From the UHGV virus genome UHGV-0178829: DNA of 12,800 bases. One strand, 5' to 3'. The notes below the pieces were generated by a model. That model saw nothing but the letters and a program-made list of their open reading frames with translations. It was not told where the DNA came from and ran no database searches. The stretch comes from a virus. The position numbers were made by a program, and so were the translations under genes. Shown here piece by piece: positions 1 through 12,800 of this stretch (position 1 is the first letter of the stretch; each line of letters opens with the position of its first letter).

Positions 1-53
1 CGCAGGTTCTCCCGTGCTAACGGTTCATCATCGACAATTAAGACTTTAATCAT
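1..53 (-). CDS. btsR: LytTR-family response regulator BtsR/YehT, first 17 codons only; gene continues beyond the window start
   Basis: Reverse complement of 1-53 reads ATG ATT AAA GTC TTA ATT GTC GAT GAT GAA CCG TTA GCA CGG GAG AAC CTG = MIKVLIVDDEPLARENL, a receiver-domain N-terminus matching remembered BtsR. The ATG (53-51) overlaps the TGA stop (52-50) of the upstream kinase gene. Confidence 0.8.
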   Translation of the reverse strand, partial: MIKVLIVDDEPLARENL

Positions 54-1735
54 GCCTCGTCCCTCCATGGTAGTCGTAACGTTATTCGGGTGTAACTATC
101 AGGCTCACAGGCGACGCTTATTCCATAGTCATCGCCAAACCGTTCACGTAAACGCTTATCCACCAGATTCATCCCCAGCCCACTGGCATTGGTTACCGGT
201 TGATACAAACCGGCATTGTCTTCGATCTCCAGCATCAAATGTTGCCCCTCACGTCGGGCGCTGATTGCCACTCGCCCTGTATCCAGCAGTTGTGATGTCC
301 CATGTTTAATGGCGTTTTCCACTATCGGTTGCAGGGTAAACGCGGGCAATTGCTGCTGGGATAATTCTTGCGGAATAGCAATGTTGACCTGCAACCGCGA
401 CTGGAAGCGCGCCTTTTCAATTTGCAGATAAGCATTCACATGTTCAATTTCGTCGGCGAGAGTAACAAACTCCGAAGGCCGCTTTAAGTTTTTGCGGAAA
501 AAAGTGGAAAGATACTGCACCAGCTGGCTGGCCTGTTCGCTGTCGCGGCGGATCACCGCTTTAATGGTGTTAAGCGCATTAAACAAAAAATGGGGATTCA
601 CCTGGGCGTGAAGCAGTTTGATCTCTGACTGGGTGAGCATCGCTTTTTGCCGCTCATATTGCCCGGCAAGGATCTGCGCCGAAAGCAATTGCGCAATCCC
701 CTCACCCAACGTGCGGTTGATTGAACTGAATAAACGGTTTTTGGCTTCATACAATTTGATGGTGCCCATCACCCGCTGATTTTCACCACGCAACGGAATT
801 ACCAGCGTCGACCCCAGTTTGCATTGCGGATGCAAAGAGCAACGGTAAGGTACTTCGTTGCCATCAGCGTAGACCACTTCACCGGTTTCAATCGCTTTTA
901 AAGTATAAGTTGAAGAAATCGGTTTGCCGGGTAAATGGTGGTCGTCACCAATTCCGGTAAAGGCCAGCAATTTCTCTCGATCGGTAATCGCGACTGCACC
1001 AATATCCAGTTCCTGATACAGCACCTGAGCCACTTTCATGCTGTTCACTTCGTTAAACCCCTGGCGCAAAATGCCTTCCGTCGAGGCTGCCACTTTCAGC
1101 GCAGTGGCAGAAAAAGCCGAAGTGTATTTTTCAAACATCGCGCGTTTATCGAGCAATATACGCATAAACAGCGCCGCGCCGACGGTATTGGTGACCATCA
1201 TTGGTGCAGCAATATTACTCACCAGACGCACCGCATCTTCATAAGGTCGGGCGATCGCAAGGATGATCAGCATTTGCACCATTTCAGCGACGAACGTGAC
1301 GGCACCGGCGGTAATGGGGTTAAAGACTTTATCAGTGCGCCCGCGGCGGATCAGGATGCTGTGTACCAGGCCACCGAGTAATCCTTCAACGATGGTCGAG
1401 ATCATGCAACTTAACGCGGTCATGCCCCCCATCGAATATCGATGTAAGCCGCCGGTCAGACCAACCAGCCCACCGACGACGGGACCGCCGAGTAAGCCGC
1501 CCATTACCGCGCCTATCGCACGGGTATTGGCAATAGAATCGTCAATGTGCAACCCAAACCAGGTGCCCATGATGCAGAAGATGGAAAAGACGATGTAGCA
1601 GAGAAATTTATGCGGCAGACGAACCGTGACCTGCATTAACGGTATGAATAATGGCGTTTTACTCATTAACCATGCAATGACTAAAAAAACGCACATCTGC
1701 TGAAGCAGCAGCAACACCAGATTAAAATCGTACAT
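50..1735 (-). CDS. btsS: LytS-type sensor histidine kinase BtsS/YehU (561 aa from the ATG at 1735; the track ORF begins 5 codons upstream at a GTG)
   Basis: Track ORF 50..1750. Translation shows multi-pass membrane N-terminus with GG-rich helices, a GAF-like middle, and a C-terminal kinase core (NPHFLFNALN H-box, ATPase motifs). Synteny with btsR immediately downstream. First ATG at 1735-1733 (MYDFNLVLLLL...) matches the remembered BtsS start. Confidence 0.9.
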   Translation of the reverse strand: MYDFNLVLLLLQQMCVFLVIAWLMSKTPLFIPLMQVTVRLPHKFLCYIVFSIFCIMGTWFGLHIDDSIANTRAIGAVMGGLLGGPVVGGLVGLTGGLHRYSMGGMTALSCMISTIVEGLLGGLVHSILIRRGRTDKVFNPITAGAVTFVAEMVQMLIILAIARPYEDAVRLVSNIAAPMMVTNTVGAALFMRILLDKRAMFEKYTSAFSATALKVAASTEGILRQGFNEVNSMKVAQVLYQELDIGAVAITDREKLLAFTGIGDDHHLPGKPISSTYTLKAIETGEVVYADGNEVPYRCSLHPQCKLGSTLVIPLRGENQRVMGTIKLYEAKNRLFSSINRTLGEGIAQLLSAQILAGQYERQKAMLTQSEIKLLHAQVNPHFLFNALNTIKAVIRRDSEQASQLVQYLSTFFRKNLKRPSEFVTLADEIEHVNAYLQIEKARFQSRLQVNIAIPQELSQQQLPAFTLQPIVENAIKHGTSQLLDTGRVAISARREGQHLMLEIEDNAGLYQPVTNASGLGMNLVDKRLRERFGDDYGISVACEPDSYTRITLRLPWRDEA

Positions 1736-1956
1736 ACCCGCAAACCACACTTCCCTTTAAAACGCGTAACATACATTGCCTGCGTTTAACTTTCTTTGAA
1801 CTCTTGCAGAAAAATGAGAATTCGTGAGTACGATCACTCAAAATCGCCTGGCAAAAATAAAATCACCCTATAGATGCACAAAAAACGGGCAAAACTACCT
1901 GGTTCGCAAAACTGCGTCTAAAGTTAAACCGGGACCTCGCGAGCAAGGGTGAGACG

Positions 1957-2025
1957 ATGGCGCTTTACACAATTGGTGAAGTGGCGTTGCTTTGTGATAT
2001 TAATCCTGTCACGTTACGCGCGTGA
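1957..2025 (+). pseudogene. mlrA: 5' fragment of mlrA/yehV (MerR-family curli regulator): 22 codons then TGA; resemblance to mlrA ends here
   Basis: ATG at 1957 encodes MALYTIGEVALLCDINPVTLRA followed by TGA at 2023-2025. This matches the remembered MlrA N-terminal HTH (MALYTIGEVALLCDINPVTLRAW...). Downstream sequence in all frames is unrelated to MlrA, and the track ORF 1949..2134 is in a different frame. Confidence 0.75.
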
Positions 2026-2148
2026 CGCAACATTTTTAAAAATCGACGAAGATCGTCCAGGAGCGCCATTTTTCAAGGGTTGGACAGATGATTCGTTTTC
2101 GATGTCGACGAACTTCGACGGATTTCGCCGATAAAAAGTGTCCCATAC

Positions 2149-2170
2149 ATGCCCCATAGATGCCCCATAG
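2149..2170. repeat. Perfect tandem direct repeat, 2 x 11 bp (ATGCCCCATAG ATGCCCCATAG), preceded by a third partial CCCATA copy (2142-2147)
   Basis: Read directly: tcccataC ATGCCCCATAG ATGCCCCATAG gcaat, about 125 bp inside the phage side of the mlrA junction. Confidence 0.6.
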
Positions 2171-2183
2171 GCAATATTACCAA

Positions 2184-2213
2184 TTGACACTGGTTATCCA
2201 CACAGCTAAAAAT
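2184..2213 (+). promoter_or_regulatory. Candidate sigma70 promoter of the dinI-like gene (TTGACA, 17 bp spacer, TAAAAA(T))
   Basis: TTGACA at 2184-2189 is a perfect -35. A 17-nt spacer is followed by the A/T-rich hexamer TAAAAA at 2207-2212. The promoter sits about 40 bp upstream of the dinI-like start and directly abuts the LexA box. Confidence 0.45.
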
Positions 2214-2218
2214 AACAC

Positions 2219-2234
2219 CTGTACATAACTACAG
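2219..2234 (+). promoter_or_regulatory. LexA (SOS) box CTGTACATAACTACAG (CTGT-N8-ACAG) over the predicted transcription start of the dinI-like gene
   Basis: Read directly. It conforms to the CTGT-N8-ACAG LexA operator pattern with an AT-rich spacer, lies just downstream of the -10, and is 15 bp upstream of ATG 2250. SD AGGAGGGGG at 2239-2247. Confidence 0.65.
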
Positions 2235-2249
2235 TTACAGGAGGGGGCT

Positions 2250-2498
2250 ATGCGTGTTGAGATCTGTATCGCTAAAGAAAAAATCAGCAAAATGCCGAAA
2301 GGTTCTGTTCCTGCTCTGCAGCAAGAAATGCTGCGCCGCATAGGTAAGCGATATGACGATGCAGATGTGATCGTTAAATCTGCCAGCAATGATGGACTCA
2401 CCATTTTAAGAGCCGTCGATAAAGAATCAGCACTGGAGTTCGTACAGGAAACACTACAGGAAGTCTGGCAAACCGCGGACGACTGGTTTATGCAATAA
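2250..2498 (+). CDS. dinI: DinI-family protein (prophage-encoded DinI homolog, 82 aa)
   Basis: Track [12 protein letters not shown]...[14 protein letters not shown] parallels E. coli DinI (MRIEVTIAK...LQETWESADDWF) in length and motifs. Strong SD, LexA box upstream, and a terminator about 90 bp downstream. Confidence 0.8.
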
Positions 2499-2589
2499 CG
2501 GGATCATAATCACTGTAATGACCTGTTTTGTATGACATTCTTAAAAGGCATAACAACGAGCTTGTCGTTTCAAGCGACTTCTTCTGGTT

Positions 2590-2616
2590 GGGGAGCCTGA
2601 GTGCTCCCCTTTTTTT
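2590..2616 (+). terminator. Rho-independent terminator downstream of the dinI-like gene; also abuts the stop of the convergent minus-strand ORF
   Basis: GGGGAGC (2590-2596), loop CTGAGT, GCTCCCC (2603-2609), then 7 T (2610-2616). On the minus strand the hairpin is preceded by an A-run and not followed by a U-run, so it is mainly a plus-strand terminator. Confidence 0.7.
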
Positions 2617-2912
2617 CAGCTAAAAATCAGCATACAGCCATACAATCCCGCACAGGCCACCACCGGCACCACAAAATCCATCAGACTGGCCACATTCCAC
2701 ACACGCGGATCAAAACCGCCCCACCACGGCATGTTCTGTCTGTGACCATCACCAAAACGCTTAATCCAGCGATATTCTGCCTGGGTATGTTCTCGGGCAA
2801 TAAAGAACGTACAACCCGCTATCGCTCCGTAAACCCAGTCACCGGTAATGCACCCGACCAGCCCCTGCACGGCTACTGCACAAATTGCATGAAGTATCGG
2901 CGTGATATCCAT
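2616..2912 (-). CDS. Hypothetical small membrane protein (98 aa, about 3 predicted transmembrane helices, Cys-rich); moron-like, function unknown
   Basis: Track ORF with ATG at 2912-2910 preceded by SD GGGGAG (TAAGGGGAGCAG-ATG). Hydrophobic stretches ITPILHAICAVAVQGLVGCIT, VYGAIAGCTFFIA and LMDFVVPVVACAGLYGCMLIF. Lies 9 nt downstream of the preceding ORF in the low-GC block. No recognisable homolog recalled. Confidence 0.6.
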   Translation of the reverse strand: MDITPILHAICAVAVQGLVGCITGDWVYGAIAGCTFFIAREHTQAEYRWIKRFGDGHRQNMPWWGGFDPRVWNVASLMDFVVPVVACAGLYGCMLIFS

Positions 2913-2921
2913 CTGCTCCCC

Positions 2922-3200
2922 TTAAAACCACCCCCTGAGCGGGCGCTCTGGTGTAACCACCCACTCACGGAACACGGATTCATCAAAGCCATCGTCAAGA
3001 AGACGAATATTAACAAAGTACCCTTCGTCTCGCGTGTATTCAGGCTCCCCGTCAGCAGAAACACCTGACTCACTGAACGTAAAACCAATCTCATCAACCA
3101 GAATGGCATTCTGCAGCTCTTCGTCCTCTTCCCAGTTAAGTTTCCTGAGAAATGCCCTGAAATCTGCTTTATCACTGAAACGCAACGTGAAATCTCTCAC
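2922..3200 (-). CDS. Hypothetical small acidic protein (92 aa), translationally coupled to the tail-fiber gene; positional candidate for a tail-fiber assembly chaperone
   Basis: Track ORF. Its only available start is GTG at 3200-3198, overlapping the tail-fiber TGA stop (GTGA); there is no in-frame ATG anywhere in the ORF. D/E-rich. It occupies the slot of P2 gpG/Tfa but does not resemble remembered gpG or lambda Tfa. Confidence 0.5.
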   Translation of the reverse strand: MRDFTLRFSDKADFRAFLRKLNWEEDEELQNAILVDEIGFTFSESGVSADGEPEYTRDEGYFVNIRLLDDGFDESVFREWVVTPERPLRGWF

Positions 3201-4987
3201 TCCACAACCTCCCCAAGCTGCGCATCTGTTAGCTCTTTATGCCAGAGACGAAAATTCCTCACATGCCCAAATAAATGGCGTAATCCTGCTGTAGTTTGTC
3301 CACCAATGCGAATGGTTGCTGTACTCCGGATATATTCCCATGTGGTTTTTGTTTCGCTGGATATACGCCCGTTACTTACTGCACATGTAGACTGATCTGA
3401 CTTTACACGCATCCCCATAACCATTTTTTTCAACGATGCGTTTTCGTTAACACGCCTATTTGATCCACCAATATCGCAATAAGGAAATCCGTCTGGCCCA
3501 TCTGCCGAAGATCCGAAGCCAAGAATAATAGCCGCTCCGGTTTGATGACCGCCGGTATCAAAAACACGTGGCGCTGCATTTGGCGTTTTATACCAGTTCT
3601 TATGTACCTCACAAAGAACCGTAAAAGGAAGATTATAAAGATTATTCTTAATTGGAACTGTAACTATATCGCTTGCGCGGGTCGCCGCCGTCGCTCCTGA
3701 TATAATAAAAGATGATACACAAGGCCCATCTTCTACTTGTGGGGTGGCCAGATAAATATAGTCACCAGATACGGTTGCCCCGCTCTGCTTAGGAGAATAC
3801 TGTATCTGAGAGCCTATTTTTAACTCCCCATCAATTGCCTGAATTGTTGCCTCTGCAAAAATCCATCCGGTAGCTTCGTCCTTTCTGACTCTCGCTGTAA
3901 TCCTTGAGGCAGCACCGCCTGTCATATTAATTTCAAGCGTTTGTGTATCAATATACGCATCACCAAGAAAAGTTGTTGCGCTACCGTCATATTTATCAAA
4001 CCGGATACGCAACCTTACCTGCAGTTCTGTTTTAAAACGACATGAGGTTGTCACGTGTTTATTATCGCCTGAGACATCAACTGACTTTGTTGCAGCAATT
4101 GATGCCATATTAATGGCTGAGGTTTGCCCAATCAGAGAATCGTTGCAGACAAACTTTCCATAGGTAAAACCAAAATTATCCGTCCCTGTTTCGGGCACAT
4201 CCATATTTGACGATCGCCCCCAACTGGCAGGGCTTTCCGAATTGAGCATGTAGTTTGTTCTTTGCCCCTCAATAAGCAGGCCATCACGTTCAAATCGTGG
4301 CTCGTCAATGGCAGCCTCTGTCAGCACACCAGATTTGTTAATATAGGTTGCTTTCGATGCACGTTTAAACTTAACAATCTTGTCGCCAGGCATCGTTATT
4401 TCATCGTCACCAATAACAATTTTTTTATATGACGGCGAAAAGCCCGTAATCATATCCAGTGAATCGTTAAACGGTATCCACACATCAGGCAGCGGCGGTA
4501 CAGACTCCTTTTCCTGCGCAACATATTCTTCAACATAGGCGCGGGTGGCGAGCACGACAGAGGGATCAACTTTCAGTTCGACAGACGAAGCACTGGAAAC
4601 CACAACAATCATGCGAATCGTCTGCGTGCGCCCGCTTCCCTCGGTGAGTACAGGCTTGTAGGTTTCGGGGCAGTTCGCCACGGCAATCATCACGCCGTCG
4701 CTGTCAAAAAGCCCAATCTCGCGGATCCAGAACCCCCCTTTATCTTCCGGGATAATCATCTCGGCGATAAGCTGGCTGGCATCAGACGCGCTGATGCTCA
4801 GTTGATTCAATGGGGCGCTGTATACCGTGTTCACCAGATTTTCCATGGAAGCCTCCGGTTCCGGCAGGCTGCCGCCGCCATCCCCCAGTTTCATGGTGGT
4901 GATGGATATTTTCGAGCCGCTGGCCACCGCCTTTGCCAGACGGGCGGCACCCTTGTCAGTCAGAACAGAAAAATATTTTACAGTCAT
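3197..4987 (-). CDS. Phage tail fiber protein (P2 gpH-like N-terminal domain; divergent C-terminal receptor-binding region ending in a LamG/concanavalin-like motif)
   Basis: Track ORF, 596 aa. N-terminal about 160 aa (MTVKYFSVLTDKGAARLA...ITTMKLGDGGG...IIPEDKGGFWIREIGLFDSDGVMIAVANCPETYKPVLTEGSGRTQTIRMIVVVSSASSVELKVDPSVVLATRAYVEEYV) aligns with remembered P2 gpH. The C-terminus ...GLRHLFGHVRNFRLWHKELTDAQL resembles the end of LamG-type jelly-roll domains. ATG at 4987 overlaps the upstream stop (ATGA). Confidence 0.85.
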   Translation of the reverse strand: MTVKYFSVLTDKGAARLAKAVASGSKISITTMKLGDGGGSLPEPEASMENLVNTVYSAPLNQLSISASDASQLIAEMIIPEDKGGFWIREIGLFDSDGVMIAVANCPETYKPVLTEGSGRTQTIRMIVVVSSASSVELKVDPSVVLATRAYVEEYVAQEKESVPPLPDVWIPFNDSLDMITGFSPSYKKIVIGDDEITMPGDKIVKFKRASKATYINKSGVLTEAAIDEPRFERDGLLIEGQRTNYMLNSESPASWGRSSNMDVPETGTDNFGFTYGKFVCNDSLIGQTSAINMASIAATKSVDVSGDNKHVTTSCRFKTELQVRLRIRFDKYDGSATTFLGDAYIDTQTLEINMTGGAASRITARVRKDEATGWIFAEATIQAIDGELKIGSQIQYSPKQSGATVSGDYIYLATPQVEDGPCVSSFIISGATAATRASDIVTVPIKNNLYNLPFTVLCEVHKNWYKTPNAAPRVFDTGGHQTGAAIILGFGSSADGPDGFPYCDIGGSNRRVNENASLKKMVMGMRVKSDQSTCAVSNGRISSETKTTWEYIRSTATIRIGGQTTAGLRHLFGHVRNFRLWHKELTDAQLGEVVE

Positions 4988-5760
4988 GAAAAAATCCTCA
5001 AAGAATCCTCCAGAAATACCACTGATGCTGTCAGGGTTCCGGTTGTGGCGGTCAGTTGCATCACCGCCTGTGGCTCCACGGTCACCGCATCATCGCCCGT
5101 AACCTGTAATCCCATGACAATCCCCGCATCGACAGATACCGACGGTGTCGGCGGGTAAATGGTGAGCATGTCGCCGTCAAAGAAAGCCGGAGATGCCCGG
5201 AACACCGAAACAGTCTCAACACCGGCAGAAGCGGCTGGCCAGATTGTTGTTTCACTGCCGTCGTGCATGCCGGAAAACACACGTGCGACTCCCTGCGTAT
5301 CCAGCATAATGTTCAGCGAGGCAAGGTGGCGGCTGACCGGACGGGCATCGTCGATCAGTCGTGTCAGCTCGGAGTACGTTTCCTCTGTGATACCCGCGTC
5401 CTGCACGCCAATATCAATGCGGAACGTGCCGCGCGGGTCGCCGTTCTGCCACCACTCCGTCACGTTAATGACATAGCCAAAGGGTTCAACCACACGCCTG
5501 ATGGCGCTGATGGTTCCCTTATGGCGGTGGATTGCCCAGGCATCACGGATCACCTGGCGCTTTGTTTCTTCCGTCCAGTCACGATCCCACCTGTCCACGG
5601 ACAGCGCCCACGCCAGATAAGGCAGCAGGGCTGCCGGGCAGGTGTCAGGATCCCAGAGCTGGTTAAGGCTGACAGGTAATGCTGACAACCGGGCGGTTCC
5701 CCGCTCCACGCAGCGCATGAAATCGCTGGCTGAAGGGGGGAGAAGTGACGGTTCACTCAT
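4984..5760 (-). CDS. Baseplate assembly protein (P2 gpI homolog) with a C-terminal extension of about 80 aa
   Basis: From the internal ATG at 5760: MSEPSLLPP...LWDPDTCPAALLPYLAWALSVDRWDRDW...KGTISAIRRVVEPFGYVINVTEWWQNGDPRGTFRIDIGV matches remembered P2 gpI (…LWNPDTCPANLLPWLAWAFSVDRWDEKW…). The track ORF extends to 5823 but that would overlap the J homolog by 70 nt. Confidence 0.85.
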   Translation of the reverse strand: MSEPSLLPPSASDFMRCVERGTARLSALPVSLNQLWDPDTCPAALLPYLAWALSVDRWDRDWTEETKRQVIRDAWAIHRHKGTISAIRRVVEPFGYVINVTEWWQNGDPRGTFRIDIGVQDAGITEETYSELTRLIDDARPVSRHLASLNIMLDTQGVARVFSGMHDGSETTIWPAASAGVETVSVFRASPAFFDGDMLTIYPPTPSVSVDAGIVMGLQVTGDDAVTVEPQAVMQLTATTGTLTASVVFLEDSLRIFS

Positions 5761-6649
5761 TGGTTCCCCCTGTGCTGACCGTGAACGATGTGCAGTACGC
5801 TGACTGCACATCACTGATAACAATATTCTGTGCGGGGCTGGTCAGTTCCACGCGCTGAACGCCCTGAACATGCAGTGCGGCCATGATGGCGGAGAGCGCG
5901 ACATCGCGACCGATTTTGCCCTGTTCGGCAAGCCAGGTTTCCAGATTGTTTCTGGCGGCATTCAGGATGGGTTCCGACTCCGGCCCCGGATAAAAGTAAA
6001 GCCGGGCATCAATCTGATACCGTATGATTTCTGCGCTCTGCACCGTCAGACGGTCACCGACCGGGCGAACGTCTTCGGCATTCAGCGCATTTCTGACCGT
6101 TGTCAGGAGTTCTTCGGTCGCCGTGCCGTCGCCTTCTGTGGACAACACTGTCACCACCACTTCCGCCGGTGCGGGGCTGGTTGCGCGCGCGTCCGCCACC
6201 TGACCGCTGGCACTGCGGGCAAAATATTCATACGCCCCGGTGGGACCGGCCACGCTGAGGCCATCAAATGCAGACTGCGCACGCAGCCGCAGGGCGGAGT
6301 CGCTTTCCATGACGGCCTCCGTGGTGTCCATGGCCGGTGTGATGACCAGCCGCGCGGTGTTCATGTTGGCAGCGAGGTTGTCCAGGTCATCACCTGTGGA
6401 ATGGCTCAGCATACAGGCCGCTGCGCCCTCATTAATGCGCTGGCGAAGCAGCAGTTCACGCAGCGCGAAAGCCTGGGCAATGACCGTGAGCGGTTCGGAC
6501 TCCAACGCCATGGCTGACCGGATGGCAGCCTGCTGTGTCTGTGGAAATGACGTAATGATGTCTTCTTTCACTTCCGCTAGGATGACTTCAAAATCCGGCG
6601 TTTCAATAATCTGTGGTGTCGGCAGTTCCGACAGGTCAACGGCTGGCAT
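5753..6649 (-). CDS. Baseplate assembly protein J (P2 gpJ homolog)
   Basis: Track ORF, 298 aa. MPAVDLSELPTPQ...VRNALNAEDVRPVGDRLTVQSAEII...LHVQGVQRVELTSP closely parallels remembered P2 gpJ along its whole length. Confidence 0.9.
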   Translation of the reverse strand: MPAVDLSELPTPQIIETPDFEVILAEVKEDIITSFPQTQQAAIRSAMALESEPLTVIAQAFALRELLLRQRINEGAAACMLSHSTGDDLDNLAANMNTARLVITPAMDTTEAVMESDSALRLRAQSAFDGLSVAGPTGAYEYFARSASGQVADARATSPAPAEVVVTVLSTEGDGTATEELLTTVRNALNAEDVRPVGDRLTVQSAEIIRYQIDARLYFYPGPESEPILNAARNNLETWLAEQGKIGRDVALSAIMAALHVQGVQRVELTSPAQNIVISDVQSAYCTSFTVSTGGTNE

Positions 6650-7001
6650 TGTCGCTCCTGAGTGTCAGTGTGTTCTGTACGGTTTCCAGGCTTTCTGTCA
6701 GTGTGCCGGTGAGGGTGATAACGGCTTTTCCGCCCGCCTCCCACTGAATGTCAACGGCATTCAGGGCGATGCGTGGCTCCCACTGTGTCAGGGCAATCAC
6801 CACGGCGCTCATGCACTGAAGGCGCGTGGTGGCATTCATCGGTGCATCCAGCAAATCCGGCAGCAGGCTGCCGTATTCCCGGCGCATCACCCGGCTGGCG
6901 AGCGGTGTTAACAGAATATCCCTCACGCTGTTCCACAGATGGTCCGTGTCGCTGAGCGTGCCGGTGGCCTCGGGGTTCATCCCCAGAAAACGGGCACTCA
7001 C
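6636..7001 (-). CDS. Baseplate wedge protein W (P2 gpW / gp25-like); GTG start
   Basis: Track ORF, 121 aa. (M)SARFLGMNPEATG...LTPLASRVMRREYGSLLPDLLD...WEPRI...VITLTG matches remembered gpW (MTARYLGMN...TPVGSRVMRRDYGSLL...). GTG at 7001-6999 overlaps the V stop (GTGA). Confidence 0.85.
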   Translation of the reverse strand: MSARFLGMNPEATGTLSDTDHLWNSVRDILLTPLASRVMRREYGSLLPDLLDAPMNATTRLQCMSAVVIALTQWEPRIALNAVDIQWEAGGKAVITLTGTLTESLETVQNTLTLRSDNASR

Positions 7002-7579
7002 TGCGGGCCTCCTGTGCTGTCACCGCCGCTCTTCACGCCACTGTGTTTGTGCGTGTGCAGCGTCACACCGTTTGAGGTGAAATCACCGCCGCTGTGCGAG
7101 ATACTGCCACTCATGGTTCCGCCTTCTGTCACCTCAATCGTTGTCGTCTTCAGATGGTTTGTGCAGGTGACGGTGGGGGTATCCAGCGTCACGCCTGTTC
7201 CGGCCTGAATGGTGGCAGTTTTGATTCCGCTGGCGCTCAGTGCGCCAGCGTCCGCATCGTAGCGGAACACCGCGCCGTCAGGCGCTGTAACCACGATTTC
7301 CGTCAGGCTGCTGCCGGGCGCCGGATGTTCGCTGCTCCAGAGACTGCCGATGACGGACGCGGTCGCGGGGTCGCCACCGATGCAGGCAATCATGACCTGT
7401 TCGCCCACGGCAGGCGGCAGCCAGACGCTGAACGCGCCCGCGCGTGGTGTGTTCCAGCGCAGCCAGTCGGTTTCCAGCTCTCCGCTGCGCACGCGAACGC
7501 GCCACGTTGTTTCGTCCACGGCAAAAATCACGCCCGTGCGGATGATATTTGCAAGCAGTCGCATGATTTCCGCTGTCAT
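6998..7579 (-). CDS. Baseplate spike/hub protein V (P2 gpV homolog)
   Basis: Track ORF, 193 aa. ...SGIKTATIQAGTGVTLDTPTVTCTNHLKTTTIEVTEGGTMSGSISHSGGDFTSNGVTLHTHKHSGV... matches the remembered gpV C-terminal region. ATG overlaps the S stop (ATGA). Confidence 0.85.
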   Translation of the reverse strand: MTAEIMRLLANIIRTGVIFAVDETTWRVRVRSGELETDWLRWNTPRAGAFSVWLPPAVGEQVMIACIGGDPATASVIGSLWSSEHPAPGSSLTEIVVTAPDGAVFRYDADAGALSASGIKTATIQAGTGVTLDTPTVTCTNHLKTTTIEVTEGGTMSGSISHSGGDFTSNGVTLHTHKHSGVKSGGDSTGGPQ

Positions 7580-8214
7580 CGTGCTGCACTCCCCAGGGAA
7601 CGGATAATCGCGTCACGCATCCGGCGTTCGTCGGCTGCGGTCACACCCAGCAGTTCACGCACCGGGTAGGTGGTCATCACGCCCGGTGTCACCTCGTCGC
7701 GTAACCCCGCCTGATGCACGCGGGCAATCCGCGCAGCCAGGCCATCAAAGCCCACCACAGCGCCTTCCGCATCTGAGCGCATTTTTAACCAGCGATATGT
7801 GCGAAGACGCGCGAACATCGGCGTGCTTTTCTTGCTGGTCTGGCGGGCAGACATGGACGATACAGCGAGGTATCGTTCAATATCATCGCGGTAAAACGTC
7901 CTCAGTGCGCCGCCACGGTCAGGGTCGCGCCCGATGATGGCGCGGCCTTTCCGGTAACGTTTGTGCCCCCACTGGCGCAGCGTGCGGACCTCGCCGTTCC
8001 AGACAAACTTCACCTCCCGGCGGGTGTGCATTACCTGCTGTTTTCGCGCCGGATACGGCGAACCGTCTGCGTTCTTCTGCGTACGGATACGCGCCTGCTG
8101 GCTCTGGCGCAGCGCCTGCCCGACAGCCCTCGCCGTGCGTGCACGTCCGGCGGTGGAAAGTCCGTTCAGGATGTCGCGGAAAACCGCGTCCGGGTCATGC
8201 GTCGTCGTGTTCAT
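7576..8214 (-). CDS. Phage virion morphogenesis / tail completion protein (P2 gpS family), 212 aa
   Basis: Track ORF at the gpS position between the R and V homologs. Basic protein with ATG at 8214 and an AAGGA SD. Family assignment is by synteny and general resemblance; it is longer than P2 gpS. Confidence 0.65.
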   Translation of the reverse strand: MNTTTHDPDAVFRDILNGLSTAGRARTARAVGQALRQSQQARIRTQKNADGSPYPARKQQVMHTRREVKFVWNGEVRTLRQWGHKRYRKGRAIIGRDPDRGGALRTFYRDDIERYLAVSSMSARQTSKKSTPMFARLRTYRWLKMRSDAEGAVVGFDGLAARIARVHQAGLRDEVTPGVMTTYPVRELLGVTAADERRMRDAIIRSLGSAAR

Positions 8215-8677
8215 CCGTCAAATCCTTAAAGGTCACATCCTCAACAATCAGCTCTCCCCAGGCTCCTGTCAGTGCGGCAGGCGGGCGGGGTTCCGGCAGG
8301 TGCACCGGATACAGTTCCCCCTGTTCATTGCGACAGACTTTCACGCGCTCGCGCACGGGAATTTCCAGTAACAGGTCGGTGCTGTCGTCGTCATTGACGG
8401 CAACGGAAAACTTAACGTCCTTGTTTTTCTCCGGGTTGAGCAGCAAATCCGGCTGGTTGTGCATGAGCCAGACAATCAGCGGCAGCATCAGCTCGTCGAT
8501 GTGTCCCGGAAAATCCATGACGAAGGCCACGAGCGTGTAACGGTAGACAAACGTCGGGGTTTCACCCGTGGTCTCAATACTTCCGCTTTCTGCAAACACG
8601 GTGAGTTTTTCCGGATTCGCGCGACACCACCGGGATGAGGCGGTGAGGGCTTCGCGCAGACGGTTCATTTTCAGCAT
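8195..8677 (-). CDS. Tail completion protein R (P2 gpR homolog)
   Basis: Track ORF, 160 aa. MLKMNRLREALTAS...YRYTLVAFVMDFPGHIDELMLPLIVWLMHNQPDLL resembles remembered gpR. Strong SD AAGGAGA 5 nt upstream of ATG 8677. Confidence 0.8.
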   Translation of the reverse strand: MLKMNRLREALTASSRWCRANPEKLTVFAESGSIETTGETPTFVYRYTLVAFVMDFPGHIDELMLPLIVWLMHNQPDLLLNPEKNKDVKFSVAVNDDDSTDLLLEIPVRERVKVCRNEQGELYPVHLPEPRPPAALTGAWGELIVEDVTFKDLTDEHDDA

Positions 8678-8686
8678 GACTTCTCC

Positions 8687-8980
8687 TTACGGTCGCATCC
8701 GGCGTTGTTGTTCGGTTGCTTTAATGGCTGCCTTGTCAGCGTTGCAGCTCTCCAGTGCGTCCAGCAGCCGGTCACTCCAGACGGCCAGTCCGCCCCACGT
8801 CAGCGGACGGGGCAGGGACGGCACCGGCGTTGGCTGTGTCAGACTTTCCGGCAGCGGTGCGTGCTGCGTCTGAGTGACCACGACGGGGCGCGGCGCGCTG
8901 TTGCAGGCGGTCAGCAACAGCGGCAGGCACAGCAGCAGCCGCGCACGGATTTTCCCGGAGTGTGTTGCGTATCTCTTCAC
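8687..8980 (-). CDS. o-spanin (Rz1/LysC-like outer-membrane lipoprotein), out of frame with and overlapping the 3' part of the i-spanin gene; proposed GTG start
   Basis: Within track ORF 8687..9133: ...KRYATHSGKIRARLLLCLPLLLTAC-NSAPRPVVVTQTQHAPLPESLTQPTPVPSLPRP... has a basic n-region, hydrophobic core, lipobox LTAC and a Pro-rich mature part. In-frame GTG at 8980-8978 is preceded by AGGAGGGAG. The upstream ATGs would give an implausibly long signal peptide. Confidence 0.55.
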   Translation of the reverse strand: MKRYATHSGKIRARLLLCLPLLLTACNSAPRPVVVTQTQHAPLPESLTQPTPVPSLPRPLTWGGLAVWSDRLLDALESCNADKAAIKATEQQRRMRP

Positions 8981-9218
8981 GGCGTTTTTCTCCCTCCTGA
9001 TTCCGGTGCTGCTCTGCGGCGCGGACCTGCGCCAGCAGGTCGCTGATGCCCCGGAGTTCCGCATGAAGTGCATCCACGGCGGCATTTGTTCCCGCCAGCG
9101 CCTGTTCGTGATATTCCCGGCGCGCCCGTTCATGCCCTGCCTGCCAGGCCAGACGCAGTGACACCAGATACAGCGCCCCCGAAAACAGGGCGACGACGGC
9201 GGCGGTGGTCAGCCTCAT
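8772..9218 (-). CDS. i-spanin (Rz/LysB-like; N-terminal TM anchor plus periplasmic coiled coil)
   Basis: Within track ORF 8772..9245, from ATG at 9218 (GGAG SD): MRLTTAAVVALFSGALYLVSLRLAWQ... then a charged helical region rich in A, R, E and Q. The ATG overlaps the lysozyme stop (ATGA). The o-spanin gene overlaps its 3' end, as with P2 lysB/lysC. Confidence 0.7.
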   Translation of the reverse strand: MRLTTAAVVALFSGALYLVSLRLAWQAGHERARREYHEQALAGTNAAVDALHAELRGISDLLAQVRAAEQHRNQEGEKRREEIRNTLRENPCAAAAVPAAVADRLQQRAAPRRGHSDAARTAAGKSDTANAGAVPAPSADVGRTGRLE

Positions 9219-9757
9219 TTCTGTTTCTCCACATCCCGCAGACACCAGGCGCGAAAATCGCTGCGGCGGTTAACCAGTCCCTGACTGCGCTTCCCGCCTG
9301 CATTCACAAAATCAGTGAGGCGGGCACACATCCGCGCCCAGTTATGCGCCTGTGCCTGTTTCCAGATGGTGGTGCGCTGGCGCTTACCGTTGCGGTCCCT
9401 GAACCACATCAGACCGGAGCACCCCAGATTGAAGGCTGCATCCGTCATCGCCTCGAAGGCCGACTGCGGCATGGCTGCCCCCTGAAAATTCTGGTTAATA
9501 CAGCTCTCCGCCCGCTGCATGTCATTCACCCAGCGACGGGCCACCTCCTGCTCGCTGTACAGGTGTTTCTGTACGTTCCCCGTGGAGCCGCAGCCCACGG
9601 TGGCAACACCCGCGATGTCCGTGTAGGGTGTGGCGCGGCAGTCTTCCCACGTGGCAATTTTTATCTGTGCCTCCTGTGAGGTGCGCAGTGCTTCAGGAGC
9701 CAGCGAGACACCCAGCGCCACAATCACGGCGGCGGCATATCGCTTAATGTTTTTCAT
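9215..9757 (-). CDS. Phage lysozyme (GH24, T4/P21-type endolysin) with an N-terminal hydrophobic segment (signal peptide or SAR domain)
   Basis: Within track ORF 9215..9841, from ATG at 9757: MKNIKRYAAAVIVALGVSLAPEAL... then WEDCRATPYTDIAGVATVGCGSTG (E-D-T catalytic pattern) and ...FVNAGGKRSQGLVNRRSDFRAWC, which parallel remembered P21 R21 lysozyme motifs. Confidence 0.8.
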   Translation of the reverse strand: MKNIKRYAAAVIVALGVSLAPEALRTSQEAQIKIATWEDCRATPYTDIAGVATVGCGSTGNVQKHLYSEQEVARRWVNDMQRAESCINQNFQGAAMPQSAFEAMTDAAFNLGCSGLMWFRDRNGKRQRTTIWKQAQAHNWARMCARLTDFVNAGGKRSQGLVNRRSDFRAWCLRDVEKQK

Positions 9758-10037
9758 CGTTATCCCGTTGCAGTGCGGCAAGCGCCCGTTGTTCACTTTC
9801 ATGAAGCCCGCGCGTTCCGGCCTGTGCCAGAATCTGTGCAATCAGCGCATTGCGGCGGACCTGCGCACGCTCCATGCGGCGACGGTGAAGCCAGCCCTGA
9901 AAGAGTGAAAGCGCACCCAGCAGCAGCCCGGCCAGCGCGATTTTTTCGCTGATGGTCATCGCGCCAATCGTGACCGCAGAGACGGAGGCGGCGAAGGCGA
10001 TGTGGTCGTAAATACTGCGAAAAAAACCTAATCCCAT
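9744..10037 (-). CDS. Putative holin (about 97 aa, two TM segments, charged C-terminal tail; pinholin-like topology)
   Basis: Within track ORF 9744..10187, from ATG at 10037 (the upstream part would overlap the gpX homolog): MGLGFFRSIYDHIAFAASVSAVTIGAMTISEKIALAGLLLGALSLFQGWLHRRRMERAQVRR.... It sits immediately upstream of, and overlaps by 14 nt, the lysozyme gene. Confidence 0.5.
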   Translation of the reverse strand: MGLGFFRSIYDHIAFAASVSAVTIGAMTISEKIALAGLLLGALSLFQGWLHRRRMERAQVRRNALIAQILAQAGTRGLHESEQRALAALQRDNDEKH

Positions 10038-10228
10038 AACTGCACCGTCTCCCGTGTTTTTTTCTCTTCCTGCTCCGGTAATTCCACTTCCTGTCCGGCC
10101 TCCAGAAAAATCTGTCCGCACAGCCCCGGATTGGCGGCCAGCACCTTTTCGGTCACGCCCTGCGTTGTGCCGTAGTGCCGGAAGCACAGCAGGTCAACGG
10201 TGTCGTCCTGTAATGCCTTCACCTTCAT
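10028..10228 (-). CDS. Tail protein X (P2 gpX homolog, LysM-like)
   Basis: From ATG at 10228-10226: MKVKALQDDTVDLLCFRHYGTTQGVTEKVLAANPGL...ELPEQE...VQLWD matches remembered gpX (MKTFALQGDTLDAICVRYYGRTEGVVETVLAANPGL...). The ATG overlaps the L stop (ATGA). The track ORF starts 2 codons upstream at a GTG. Confidence 0.85.
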   Translation of the reverse strand: MKVKALQDDTVDLLCFRHYGTTQGVTEKVLAANPGLCGQIFLEAGQEVELPEQEEKKTRETVQLWD

Positions 10229-10722
10229 CAGCACAGCCTCGCAAAGATGCGCGGTGCGCCCTGAATATCGGCAATGGCCCAGCGCACGTCGCGCCAGAGG
10301 TCACCGGTCTGGGCTTCCAGTGCGTCCGCTTTCCGGTCGCCCTGTTCGGTGGTGTCCACATCGCGCACGCGCTCCAGTATCAGGGCGCGGGTGGCGGCAT
10401 ACACCGCAAGACGGAAGCGGTGCACGTTGACGCTTTCGCCGTTCACGCGGGAAGCCGGAACGTCCGCCAGCGTGCGGTATCCGTCATTCATCTGCTGCGT
10501 CTGCCAGTTGCGCAGCTCACCGGTGACGTGTGCCACGGCTTCGGTTGCCGCGTGCATCAGGCGCGACGTGGTGGTGCGACCGGGCAGGCGCACGGCAAGA
10601 CGCAGCGCGCGCAGTTCTGTCTCCGGCCAGAAGTCGTCCGTGGTGATGCGTGCATCACCGTCGTCCGTGTCCGCGACATCCTCCGTCGCGGCAGTGATAC
10701 CGGGTTTTGCAATCATGCTCAT
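10228..10722 (-). CDS. Head completion/stabilization protein (P2 gpL homolog)
   Basis: Track ORF, 164 aa, in the gpL position between the M and X homologs. Acidic N-terminus (...DDFWPETELRALRLA...) and overall pattern resemble remembered gpL. SD GGAGG 7 nt upstream of ATG 10722. Confidence 0.75.
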   Translation of the reverse strand: MSMIAKPGITAATEDVADTDDGDARITTDDFWPETELRALRLAVRLPGRTTTSRLMHAATEAVAHVTGELRNWQTQQMNDGYRTLADVPASRVNGESVNVHRFRLAVYAATRALILERVRDVDTTEQGDRKADALEAQTGDLWRDVRWAIADIQGAPRIFARLC

Positions 10723-10753
10723 GACGAGCCTCCGTTAAAAAGTCAGGCGGTGG

Positions 10754-10801
10754 GCGAACGGTCAGAAGGTCGCGGAGTTAAAAAACCAGGTGACCGTTCG
10801 C
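10754..10801. repeat. Perfect 11-bp inverted repeat GCGAACGGTCA ... TGACCGTTCGC with a 26-nt spacer, in the intergenic region between the M and L homologs
   Basis: Read directly: 10754-10764 GCGAACGGTCA and 10791-10801 TGACCGTTCGC are exact reverse complements. Confidence 0.6.
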
Positions 10802-10841
10802 GCCGCCTGTCGCCGGGGCGAAGTCGGTATGCGTGAGAGTC

Positions 10842-11639
10842 TCACGCGGATTTTTTGCTTTTCCGTGTGGCAGTGGCTTTTGTGGCGCTCTTTTTGCCTG
10901 CCTTTTTCGTCACGGTTTTCGCGGTACTTTTGCCTTCCGCGTTGTTCTCCGCACCGTCGGTACTGGTCAGCTTTTTCACTGCACGGGACAGCGTGGCAAT
11001 CTCGCGCTTCACGCCCGCGTTCGGGTTCAGGTGCATCGCTTCGCGCAGCAGTTTCAATGATGAAGCCATACTGTCCGCATCGGTCAGACCACGGCGGGAA
11101 AAGGCGCACGCCTTGCAGAGTTTGGCGCGGACCTCGTCCGGCATGTCCCGACCGGCGATAATTTCCTGTAGCGTGTCCAGCGGGGCGATGTATCCGGACA
11201 AATCCGCGTCCTGGTCAGTGCCTGCCAGCGTCAGCACCGGGTTACAGATTTCCTCTGTCAGCAGCGTGGCGGCATCGCGCCCGAAGCTGTCCGGTGTGCT
11301 GAGGTTATGGCGTACCACGTACTCACCGATGCGCAGCGCCAGCGGCAAATCACCGCAGTCAACGGCCCAGACCATGAGGGTGACTATCACCTCATCCTGG
11401 CGTCCGCTGTCGCTCTCGAGCGTGCCGTCAATCCAGCCGGAAAAATCCGGCAGCAGCGTCTTTTTCAGTTCCGCTTTCGCTGCCTTTGACTGAATGCCTT
11501 TCAGTCGTGCCTGTGCCAGTCGCAGGCGATGCAGGATTTGTTCGTGAGCCGTGCGCACCGTCTGTGACTGACTGTCATCGGTCAGTCCGGCGCGTTGTGC
11601 CATCGTGCGCTGAAAATGCGCCTGTGCCGGTGTCAGCAT
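10842..11639 (-). CDS. Terminase small (endonuclease) subunit (P2 gpM homolog)
   Basis: Track ORF, 265 aa. MLTPAQAHFQRTMAQRAG...LLPDFSGWIDGTLE...DMPDEVRAKLCKA...NAGVKREIATL... and a Lys/Ala/Thr-rich basic C-terminal tail parallel remembered gpM (MTSPAQRHMMRV...DMPDEVRAKLHK...AGVKKEIERL...). Confidence 0.9.
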   Translation of the reverse strand: MLTPAQAHFQRTMAQRAGLTDDSQSQTVRTAHEQILHRLRLAQARLKGIQSKAAKAELKKTLLPDFSGWIDGTLESDSGRQDEVIVTLMVWAVDCGDLPLALRIGEYVVRHNLSTPDSFGRDAATLLTEEICNPVLTLAGTDQDADLSGYIAPLDTLQEIIAGRDMPDEVRAKLCKACAFSRRGLTDADSMASSLKLLREAMHLNPNAGVKREIATLSRAVKKLTSTDGAENNAEGKSTAKTVTKKAGKKSATKATATRKSKKSA

Positions 11640-11688
11640 TGTTCTCTCCTCTTACGGGCGGTCAGCGCCCGCCCGTGGTTCAGGTAAA

Positions 11689-12750
11689 TCAGTCTTCGTG
11701 ATGGCTTTCATCAGCCAGTTTCAGCCCCGTGATAAGGGCGCACTTGCCGAAGTCTTCCACCACCCACGCATCGTTGGAGGACTGATAGGTTGCGATGCGG
11801 TTGTAGTCCGGCTCTTCACGCATCAGACGACGTAATGCTCCCACCTGGTAGTAGATGGACAGGTTGTCGAACGAGGTGATGAGCAGCGCGTCTTTCGGGA
11901 AGAACGGCGCGAGATATACCGGCAGACCACCAATCAGGCGTGAGGAGGTAATCAACTGACCGGCCATCAGTTCCGTGTTCGGCGCGGCGGCACTCATGGC
12001 GTTAATGAGTGGCAGGCGCAGCGTGTTGAACAGGTCGCGTCCCATCATCACCACAAGGTCGGATGAATCCTTGTACCACTCATCCAGCAGTGATGAGCGC
12101 GCATCCTGTACCAGCGCGTCCGGGTTGTTGTACTTGCCTTTGTAGGTGACGGCGTTGTCCATATCGCGTGCCGTAATGGTGACATCAGACATCACGCGCT
12201 GGGCTGCATTCTGGCGGATGCTTTCCAGCCAGCCCACGCCACAGTCCTGCAACAGCGGGTTACTGCTGCGGTCGGACTTCACGGCGCGGGACGTGCCGTT
12301 GAAACCAATCATGATGCGATCAAGGGCGATACGGCGGGCAATCTGCGCGCTGACCCGAGCCTGAAAATCCGGGTGTGCGGACCACGCGTCCAGTTGTGCG
12401 TAGCTGATAAATGTGTCGTAGTTGACCTGCTCGCAGGCGTACTGGCGTGCCGCCAGCTCGTGGAGTGATGCCGGTTCGCGGCGCTCACTTGTACTGGTGT
12501 TCACACTGGCAGACGGACCGTTGATGCCGATCAGGACTTTTTCGCCTTTCTGGTCGGTCACACCGATGACGTTGATTCTTTGCAGCAGCTCGTCGCTCTG
12601 CTGAATGGCGTTTTCCATGCGCTGCTGCACGGCGGGCTGAACGTTAAAACGCTGAGCAAGCGCTGCGGGAGAAACATTGTTCATGCCCGCCTGCTGCTGC
12701 ATATACATCGCCAGAGCGCCACGGGTGGTGGATGAAAGAGTCAGGTTCAT
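11689..12750 (-). CDS. Major capsid protein (P2 gpN homolog)
   Basis: Track ORF, 353 aa. ...GFNGTSRAVKSDRSSNPLLQDCGVGWL...LVQDARSSLLDEWYKD..DLVVMMGRDL...LSIYYQ...VVEDF... matches remembered gpN (…AGFNGVKRAETSDRSSNPMLQDVAVGWL…). SD GAGGA upstream of ATG 12750. Confidence 0.9.
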   Translation of the reverse strand: MNLTLSSTTRGALAMYMQQQAGMNNVSPAALAQRFNVQPAVQQRMENAIQQSDELLQRINVIGVTDQKGEKVLIGINGPSASVNTSTSERREPASLHELAARQYACEQVNYDTFISYAQLDAWSAHPDFQARVSAQIARRIALDRIMIGFNGTSRAVKSDRSSNPLLQDCGVGWLESIRQNAAQRVMSDVTITARDMDNAVTYKGKYNNPDALVQDARSSLLDEWYKDSSDLVVMMGRDLFNTLRLPLINAMSAAAPNTELMAGQLITSSRLIGGLPVYLAPFFPKDALLITSFDNLSIYYQVGALRRLMREEPDYNRIATYQSSNDAWVVEDFGKCALITGLKLADESHHED

Positions 12751-12800
12751 GGTTAATCCTCAGAAATCACAGGCGGTGTAAGCAATGCCGCCGCCGGTTA

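Follow-up and report, generated by a model that had tools for sequence, protein, structure and literature searches.

A lambdoid prophage end in mlrA passes into P2-type DNA within one tail-fibre reading frame of the virus genome UHGV-0178829

We analysed a 12,800-nucleotide (nt) stretch of the virus genome UHGV-0178829, which is called the window here in its full length and whose positions supply all coordinates given below. The window begins with Escherichia coli chromosomal DNA that includes the sensor kinase gene btsS and the 5' end of the curli regulator gene mlrA (yehV). Next to mlrA comes an ordinary lambdoid prophage arm (2025 to about 4500), consisting of a dinI-like gene, two small open reading frames (ORFs) and the C-terminal part of a side-tail-fibre (stf) gene, and beyond it lies a P2-type virion and lysis module (Table 1). 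A sequence-only reading of this stretch had proposed that prophage insertion truncates mlrA after codon 22 and that the prophage occupying the site is of the P2 type. The truncation is borne out, and P2-type morphogenetic genes are really present in the window, as Pfam matches and identical DNA in SCU-172 demonstrate. However, a P2-type phage is not the occupant of the site, since the DNA abutting the attachment core is a lambdoid arm to which the P2 module is joined secondarily, within the tail-fibre gene.

The reference protein for mlrA, MlrA of K-12 MG1655 (b2127), is 243 amino acids (aa) in length, has a tryptophan at residue 23, and contains a Pfam MerR_1 helix-turn-helix (HTH) domain at residues 4-72, domains having been mapped on the K-12 protein. 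When window positions 1-2024 are compared with K-12, only 3 mismatches are observed in 2024 nt (at 1205, 1460 and 1481), and every one of them lies within btsS, indicating that btsS, the intergenic region and the 5' end of mlrA are native chromosome. The mlrA remnant (mlrA') has its ATG at 1957-1959, encodes the peptide MALYTIGEVALLCDINPVTLRA, and terminates with a TGA at 2023-2025. Identity with K-12 runs through CGCGCGTG and ends at 2024; the next base is G in K-12, where it completes TGG (Trp23), and A in the window. Thus, the TGA is composed of the TG of the core and the first phage base, A, and the stop codon is created by the junction itself. Given the extent of the MerR HTH, a break after codon 22 falls within the DNA-binding domain, and these 22 codons compare with a 243-aa protein that has a MerR HTH, an MlrA helical domain and a C-terminal domain. 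RefSeq tags the remnant as a partial pseudogene in VR50, MS 196-1 and SCU-172, and it is labelled yehV' in VT1-Sakai. K-12 mlrA contains a single copy of the 20-bp sequence CCTGTCACGTTACGCGCGTG, and the VR50 prophage has one copy at each end, which identifies this sequence as the attachment (att) core. These observations agree with the sequence-only reading, which had recognized the ORF at 1957 as the MlrA N-terminal HTH peptide with its stop at the end of the resemblance to mlrA, and which had placed the event, accurately, at 1957-2030. The K-12 alignment that it proposed for locating the breakpoint and a duplicated core puts the breakpoint after 2024 and gives CCTGTCACGTTACGCGCGTG as the core.

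The same junction and arm are present in 339 of the 5426 complete genomes that make up our E. coli comparison set, with window positions 1700-2600 as the query and at least 80% coverage required; the VR50 copy is 100% identical. Using a 401-nt K-12 probe that spans the site, and counting an uninterrupted match as intact, we found mlrA to be uninterrupted in 4944 of the 5426 genomes and interrupted at or near the site in 482 (8.9%). Most genomes without an uninterrupted mlrA carry the same arm. Lambdoid insertion in mlrA is found in about 6-9% of E. coli genomes, and truncation of mlrA at the yehV junction is both already known and common. The probability that the break is a sequencing or assembly error, or that the region is not mlrA, is negligible, because the whole of the 5' side agrees with K-12 mlrA without a mismatch, and because 339 independent genomes of the complete set have the junction, as does the annotated record of VT1-Sakai; recurrence of the junction together with its downstream DNA likewise rules out a chance ORF.

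At the attR of VR50, the 3' remnant of mlrA appears in RefSeq as an intact 228-aa 'HTH-type transcriptional regulator MlrA' (WP_042101647.1; L001 49649-49901, NZ_CP011134 from 2371648). This annotated protein begins with ATC, a non-canonical start codon that lies shortly before the att core, and it is without residues 1-15 and the native promoter. Since such a remnant is annotated as intact, annotation-based counts of intact mlrA miss disruptions of this kind.

The sequence-only reading had further described yehV/mlrA as an integration site of Shiga toxin 1 (Stx1) phages, and the annotation of VT1-Sakai (Sp15, AP000400) confirms this, with an identical mlrA breakpoint and the same 20-bp core. 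The VT1-Sakai annotation lists yehV', the 20-bp attachment site, a putative promoter, a putative SOS box and DinI, which is the order of the window. The VT1-Sakai arm is 87.6% identical to that of the window over the first ~370 nt, and the BP-4795 arm is 86.0% identical over 469 nt. Both arms share with the window the ATGCCCCAT[A/T] repeats, the promoter, the SOS box and the dinI-like gene. In contrast to both, the window has P2-type genes past the tail-fibre gene and not lambdoid tail genes. Unlike in the Stx1 phages, no stx gene is visible in the window, which does not extend to the region downstream of Q, and none is annotated in the VR50 prophage.

The closest complete counterpart of the arm, in VR50 (NZ_CP011134, 2324.9-2371.6 kb), is a 46.7-kb stx-negative lambdoid prophage that lies between the two halves of mlrA and shares with the window attL, the dinI-like gene, the two small ORFs and the 3' end of the tail-fibre gene. 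Reading inward, the VR50 prophage carries the dinI-like gene, the two small ORFs, stf, lom, gpJ, the tape measure gene, head genes and terminase, followed by lysis genes, Q, replication genes, xis and int, with the remainder of mlrA beginning 35 nt after int. Whereas VR50 continues as lambdoid DNA as far as attR, the window turns LF82-type at 3513-3652 and P2-type at 4451-4500. Downstream of Q, the VR50 prophage (L001 33796-35959) holds tRNA genes for Arg, Arg and Ile, a methyltransferase fragment and an ompC-like porin gene.

In the window, the breakpoint lies at the 20-bp core, and the repeats, promoter, SOS box and dinI-like gene of this lambdoid type come right after it; from 4451-4500 on, the DNA is P2-type, in place of an stf N-terminal domain, lom and gpJ. 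We conclude that mlrA was almost certainly split by Int-mediated integration of a lambdoid prophage of the VT1-Sakai/BP-4795/VR50 type at CCTGTCACGTTACGCGCGTG, and that the window holds the attL of this prophage.

Several features of the arm bear on integration and on expression of the dinI-like gene. Repeats of ATGCCCCATA occur at 2149-2158 and 2160-2169, and a third copy adjoins the stop codon of int at the attR of VR50; we consider these repeats candidate arm-type Int sites. Written as ATGCCCCAT[A/T], the repeat has 2 copies in the window, 2 in VT1-Sakai and 4 in BP-4795, with one more at the VR50 attR; these may be arm-type Int binding sites whose copy number varies. A promoter-like site that matches the consensus at 10 of 12 positions consists of TTGACA at 2184, an 18-nt spacer (N18) and AAAAAT ending at 2213, and pattern matching places a LexA box, CTGTACATAACTACAG, at 2219-2234. 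Both correspond to the putative promoter and SOS box annotated in VT1-Sakai (AP000400), whose arm has TTGACA-N18-AAAAAT and CTGTACATAACTACAG in common with the window. A hairpin scan of 2025-2250 detected no canonical intrinsic terminator: hairpins at 2007-2027 (the core plus two phage bases) and 2045-2057 have no T-run directly after them, and the fold between mlrA' and the dinI-like gene is no better than that of shuffled sequences (z = -1.38). Read-through from the mlrA promoter is therefore possible. Nevertheless, with a promoter-like site and a LexA box of its own, the dinI-like gene does not depend on the mlrA promoter. The terminator-like hairpin listed in Table 1 sits between the dinI-like gene and the tail-fibre cassette, which are convergent, and no Rfam RNA family was found within the window.

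The two small ORFs that follow are 100% identical to those of VR50 apart from a single nucleotide polymorphism (SNP) at 2932. They are labelled hypothetical proteins in VR50, and neither the 98-aa nor the 92-aa product matches a Pfam family above threshold. For the 98-aa product, Pfam gives a score of 18.1 bits with a putative phage holin, below the cut-off of 26.4. The P2-like prophage has equivalent ORFs of 92 aa and 97 aa after its tail-fibre gene H, and the 98-aa type is present in both lambdoid and P2-like cassettes. The exact 92-aa protein is on record in only three short ENA metagenome contigs. The SNP at 2932 separates the window from VR50, MS 196-1 and SCU-172 and is shared by both metagenome contigs examined (ERZ28621996 and ERZ27295924).

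The tail-fibre gene is where the window departs from the known mlrA prophages. Mismatch maps resolve three blocks, all of which meet within this one intact, in-frame ORF. Block A (1-3652) has 4 mismatches relative to VR50, and the first mismatch in the fibre gene is at 3653. Block B (3513-4459) has exactly the sequence of the stf gene in a lambdoid prophage that LF82 carries at another locus. Block C (4451-12800) shows 0 mismatches in 8350 nt relative to the P2-like prophage of SCU-172. The gene itself is accordingly made up of a VR50-type lambdoid part (3197-3652), an LF82-type lambdoid stf part (3513-4459) and the N-terminus of a P2-type H gene (4451-4987), with residues 1-149 of the product forming the P2-type N-terminal domain Phage_tail_fib (PF12571). 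Blocks A and B overlap exactly over 140 nt (3513-3652), and blocks B and C over 9-50 nt when the closest known parents are considered. A 44-nt junction pattern proved to be unspecific, with exact matches in 41 lambdoid viral contigs; when these are taken into account, the interval in which the crossover can lie grows from 9 nt to no more than 50 nt. The homology of every lambdoid relative stops at 4496-4505.

The crossover patch encodes PLPDVWIPFNDSLDM. Among the best 120 homologues of the fibre from 5.8 billion protein clusters, this peptide is invariant in 120 of 120, at positions ranging from 3 to 537 and behind at least three unrelated N-terminal modules. Its invariance behind unrelated modules shows PLPDVWIPFNDSLDM to be the general joint of this fibre family, between anchor modules and receptor-binding cassettes, and a natural shuffling point. 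Known proteins with this P2-type N-terminus all continue with LTGFAP..., whereas the window alone continues with ITGFSP..., as lambdoid fibres do. The exact 596-aa chimeric protein is not on record, and the best full-length homologue in those clusters is 82% identical. In the mlrA lambdoid prophage of MS 196-1, the middle of the fibre gene (window 3700-4150) is nearer to the LF82 type than that of VR50 is, which indicates that the fibre gene of this lambdoid family is itself a patchwork across strains.

Within the window, Pfam identifies Tail_P2_I and Phage_tail_fib, and on identical or near-identical loci the P2 capsid, terminase small subunit, GPL, tail X, GpR, tail S, base V, GPW and baseplate J families are called. 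The virion and lysis set is thus represented by N, M, L, X, lysis genes, R, S, V, W, J, I and the N-terminus of H. The sheath, tube, gpE, tape measure, gpU, gpD and ogr genes, however, are not beside the H cassette, and their position is taken by the lambdoid cassette, the dinI-like gene, attL and btsS. In SCU-172, the P2-like (Peduoviridae-type) prophage adjoins ihfA (NZ_CP054353, 2303.9 kb to beyond 2335 kb), and the 8350 nt that it shares with the window extend from the N-terminus of H through the major capsid gene, in whose region the window ends at 12800. Its H protein has 593 aa and an LTGFAP-type C-terminal part, unlike the 596-aa fibre of the window. In the P2-like relatives, H is followed by the 92-aa and 97-aa ORFs, gpU, tape measure, gpE, tube and sheath genes, and in SCU-172 then by gpD and ogr. 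That these tail genes are replaced on this side by a lambdoid cassette and chromosome indicates that the P2 element did not integrate at mlrA. With equally high confidence as for the integration event, we conclude that the P2 module is not the integrating element and that the sequence switches to P2-like DNA at 4451-4500, inside one intact fibre ORF and at PLPDVWIPFNDSLDM. Integration of a P2-type phage alone at mlrA was rejected, as it is a lambdoid arm that abuts the core.

Two annotation differences concern genes of this module. gpI is flagged as a truncated pseudogene in the RefSeq record of SCU-172 (L002 13966-14425), while the same DNA encodes 258 aa without interruption, including the entire Tail_P2_I domain, and gene calling on a metagenome contig also treats it as complete. 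At 8687-9218 (minus strand), a LysB-like ORF with a DUF2570 match (8772-9218) overlaps an Rz1-like LysC ORF (8687-9133) in a different frame, and annotation pipelines differ in whether they call the LysB-like gene or LysC.

Table 1. Features of the window, with the basis on which each was assigned
Feature	Position	Strand	Basis
btsS (yehU), sensor kinase, chromosomal neighbour of mlrA	50-1735	-	annotated at matching position in VR50, MS 196-1 and K-12; Pfam 5TM-5TMR_LYT, His_kinase and HATPase_c; transcribed divergently from mlrA
btsS-mlrA intergenic region with native mlrA upstream (putative promoter) region	1736-1956	+	identical to K-12 MG1655
mlrA' remnant, 22 codons and TGA	1957-2025	+	identical to K-12 MlrA residues 1-22
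att core CCTGTCACGTTACGCGCGTG, attL copy, 20 bp	2005-2024	+	1 copy in K-12 mlrA, 2 copies in VR50 (attL, attR)
Lambdoid arm adjoining attL	2025-2249	+	homology to VT1-Sakai, BP-4795, JLK-2012 and YYZ-2008 from exactly 2026
dinI-like gene, 82 aa, prophage-end cargo	2250-2498	+	Pfam DinI, E = 6.7e-17; WP_001261928.1 in VR50
Terminator-like GC-rich hairpin and T-run	2590-2616	.	GGGGAGCCTGAGTGCTCCCC then TTTTTTT
Two small ORFs, lambdoid version	2616-3200	-	98 aa at 2616-2912, 92 aa at 2922-3200
Chimeric tail-fibre gene, intact, 596 aa	3197-4987	-	mismatch maps, translation
Lambdoid/P2 crossover patch	4451-4500	-	three-way alignment; nt 4451-4495 encode PLPDVWIPFNDSLDM, residues 165-179
P2-type virion and lysis module	4984-12800	-	identical SCU-172 DNA, Pfam, gene calls on near-identical loci
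gpI	4984-5760	-	Pfam Tail_P2_I
J	5753-6649	-	P2-type module
W	6636-7001	-	P2-type module
V	6998-7579	-	P2-type module
S	7576-8214	-	P2-type module
R	8195-8677	-	P2-type module
LysC/LysB-like	8687-9218	-	P2-type module
Lysozyme	9215-9757	-	P2-type module
97-aa ORF	9744-10037	-	P2-type module
X	10028-10228	-	P2-type module
L	10228-10722	-	P2-type module
M	10842-11639	-	P2-type module
Major capsid N	11689-12750	-	P2-type module

In these alignments, the P2 DNA is fused to the lambdoid arm by a single switch, without a second crossover. On a modest balance of probability, we favour the view that the join is real and arose by a single crossover that linked stf of the lambdoid prophage in mlrA to the H gene of a P2-like element, either a phage or a prophage. 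Such a crossover would have taken place in the conserved patch of at most 50 nt, mediated by RecA or by a phage recombinase of the Rad52 type; for Rad52-like recombinases of phages, relaxed recombination has been documented (PMC3945230). A single crossover with no second one would leave a structural trace, either an inversion or a nested prophage. In the first case, the inversion would lie between two resident prophages, the mlrA lambdoid and a P2-like one. In the second, a circular P2-like genome would have inserted into the lambdoid stf by Campbell-type homologous recombination. SCU-172 holds both elements on opposite strands, ~514 kb apart, and recombination of stf with H in that arrangement would produce exactly the order of the window. 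An inversion would take attL and attR out of direct orientation, so that excision could not rebuild mlrA; with a nested P2 genome, excision by Int and Xis would still be formally possible.

Tail-fibre genes have precedents for such exchange. Mosaicism of these genes between P2, lambda, Mu and P1 was reportedly described by Haggard-Ljungquist and colleagues in 1992, and here, as in the known mosaicism, C-terminal fibre cassettes are common to unrelated phage types. Large prophage-mediated rearrangements by homologous recombination are known from E. coli O157:H7 (PMC8743559). Those published rearrangements mostly involve pairs of lambdoid prophages that share kilobases, whereas the present case pairs a lambdoid with a P2-type element over a short exact patch. 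The present chimera of lambdoid and P2 fibre parts would be one isolated case of a type of event that is already familiar.

The main alternative, to which we assign a substantial minority probability, is an assembly chimera in which a normal mlrA lambdoid prophage, a second lambdoid prophage with an LF82-type fibre and a separate P2-like prophage were misjoined through shared fibre repeats. Each of the three blocks matches a different known prophage and the switches fall exactly in shared sequence, as such an artefact would have it. However, the exact overlap of 9-50 nt between blocks B and C is below the final k-mer of most modern assemblers and too short to mislead those that finish at k >=55. 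Two successive misjoins in one contig would also be unusual, since assemblers normally break at unresolved repeats. The chimeric ORF is intact and in frame, and its switch coincides with a module junction that recurs in nature. Furthermore, MS 196-1 has a block B-like middle segment, so a fibre combining A and B could be a natural variant; this would remove the need for one of the two artefacts and, on the favoured view of a real join, would leave just one crossover to be explained.

Several observations weigh against a real join, and some of them lend weight to the assembly chimera. The window lacks attR, int and the reciprocal junction, and the type of rearrangement was not observed. Queries with the whole window, 2450-5300 and 4250-4760 yielded no contiguous match in the 5426 complete E. 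coli genomes; the 4250-4760 junction query was covered in only 4 of them, at 87-90% identity, and in complete genomes positions 1-4500 match mlrA lambdoids while 3330-12800 match P2-family prophages elsewhere in the chromosome. Likewise, an 89-nt junction pattern had 0 matches in viral, metagenome and species-representative genome contigs, so that the junction is in no other assembly or collection searched, and no full-length protein above 82% identity exists among the 5.8 billion clusters. The relatives of the P2-like prophage are uniform: its gpJ is present in 215 public-assembly blocks, and in 24 of the 24 contigs with the same gpJ that were read, H has its normal 593 aa, and gpU, tape measure, tube and sheath genes come after it. 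The two otherwise unseen switch points (3513-3652 and 4451-4500) lie within 1 kb of each other, and the nearest relatives of the arm that share the SNP at 2932 stay VR50-type past 3653; this combination also fits a wrong path through a tangled assembly graph. Two points bear on the inversion in particular. The chromosomal backbone of the window is K-12/VR50-like and not SCU-172-like, and an inversion of 0.5 Mb confined to a single replichore may reduce fitness. If the contig is chimeric, the truncation of mlrA nevertheless stays real.

It is very unlikely that the window derives from one viable hybrid phage that combined a lambdoid integration end with P2-type virion genes and integrated at mlrA as a unit. 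The tail-fibre ORF is intact, as are the P2 head, baseplate and lysis genes, which are identical to those of a widespread prophage. However, the essential sheath, tube, gpE, tape measure, gpU, gpD and ogr genes are not on this side, and the two halves are 100% identical to separate complete prophages of different types, which points to a very recent join and not to an established lineage. Neither IMG/VR nor the phage collection contains such a hybrid; the best P2-type match in the latter is P88, at ~75%.

Still more improbable is a join made by a Din-family invertase of the Pin/Gin/Cin type at the boundary between constant and variable fibre parts, and this mechanism is not supported. The switch is located at such a boundary, and pinQ lies beside the fibre cassette in LF82-type lambdoids. 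However, there are no significant inverted repeats in 1900-5300, no recombinase or invertase is among the window genes, none is near H in the P2-like relatives, and the organization is not that of an invertase-switched segment of the Mu G, P1 C or e14 P type. By eye, the crossover patch is not palindromic, and it matches only ~14 of 26 positions of the Mu gix site. Invertase-driven switching of tail-fibre segments has been reported in P88-like and BP-4795-like prophages of ST131 isolates (bioRxiv 10.1101/2022.05.07.487787).

Taken as a whole, we give an even chance to the full sequence of events in which a very recent in-vivo crossover between stf and H at the 15-residue motif provided P2 baseplate genes with an intact, lambdoid-tipped fibre gene and rearranged the chromosome, by an inversion of ~0.5 Mb or by nesting. 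If this is correct, the window would provide a clean natural example of cross-family phage recombination at a short conserved tail-fibre motif, and if the rearrangement was an inversion, the mlrA prophage would be unable to excise and the loss of the curli regulator would be permanent. If the join is an artefact, it would serve as a warning that tail-fibre repeats can yield plausible chimeric contigs with intact ORFs.

The consequence for mlrA is the same in either case. Interruption of mlrA is a textbook feature of O157:H7. Prophage insertions in mlrA have been found in 53 of 55 O157:H7 strains and 4 of 19 non-O157 Shiga toxin-producing E. coli strains, with limited curli and biofilm formation, and mlrA supplied in trans restored curli production and Congo-red binding in 2 of 4 non-O157 insertion strains (PMC3874044). 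Some mlrA-dependent properties may return upon prophage induction (PMC5931665). The cut inside the HTH separates the 3' part of mlrA from its promoter, and the truncated allele should be null for csgD activation, as expected from the published curli-negative phenotype of such insertions and its complementation by mlrA. The cut thus predicts a curli- and biofilm-deficient strain, which is relevant to the typing of persistence phenotypes, and the present count indicates that interruption of mlrA is common far beyond O157.

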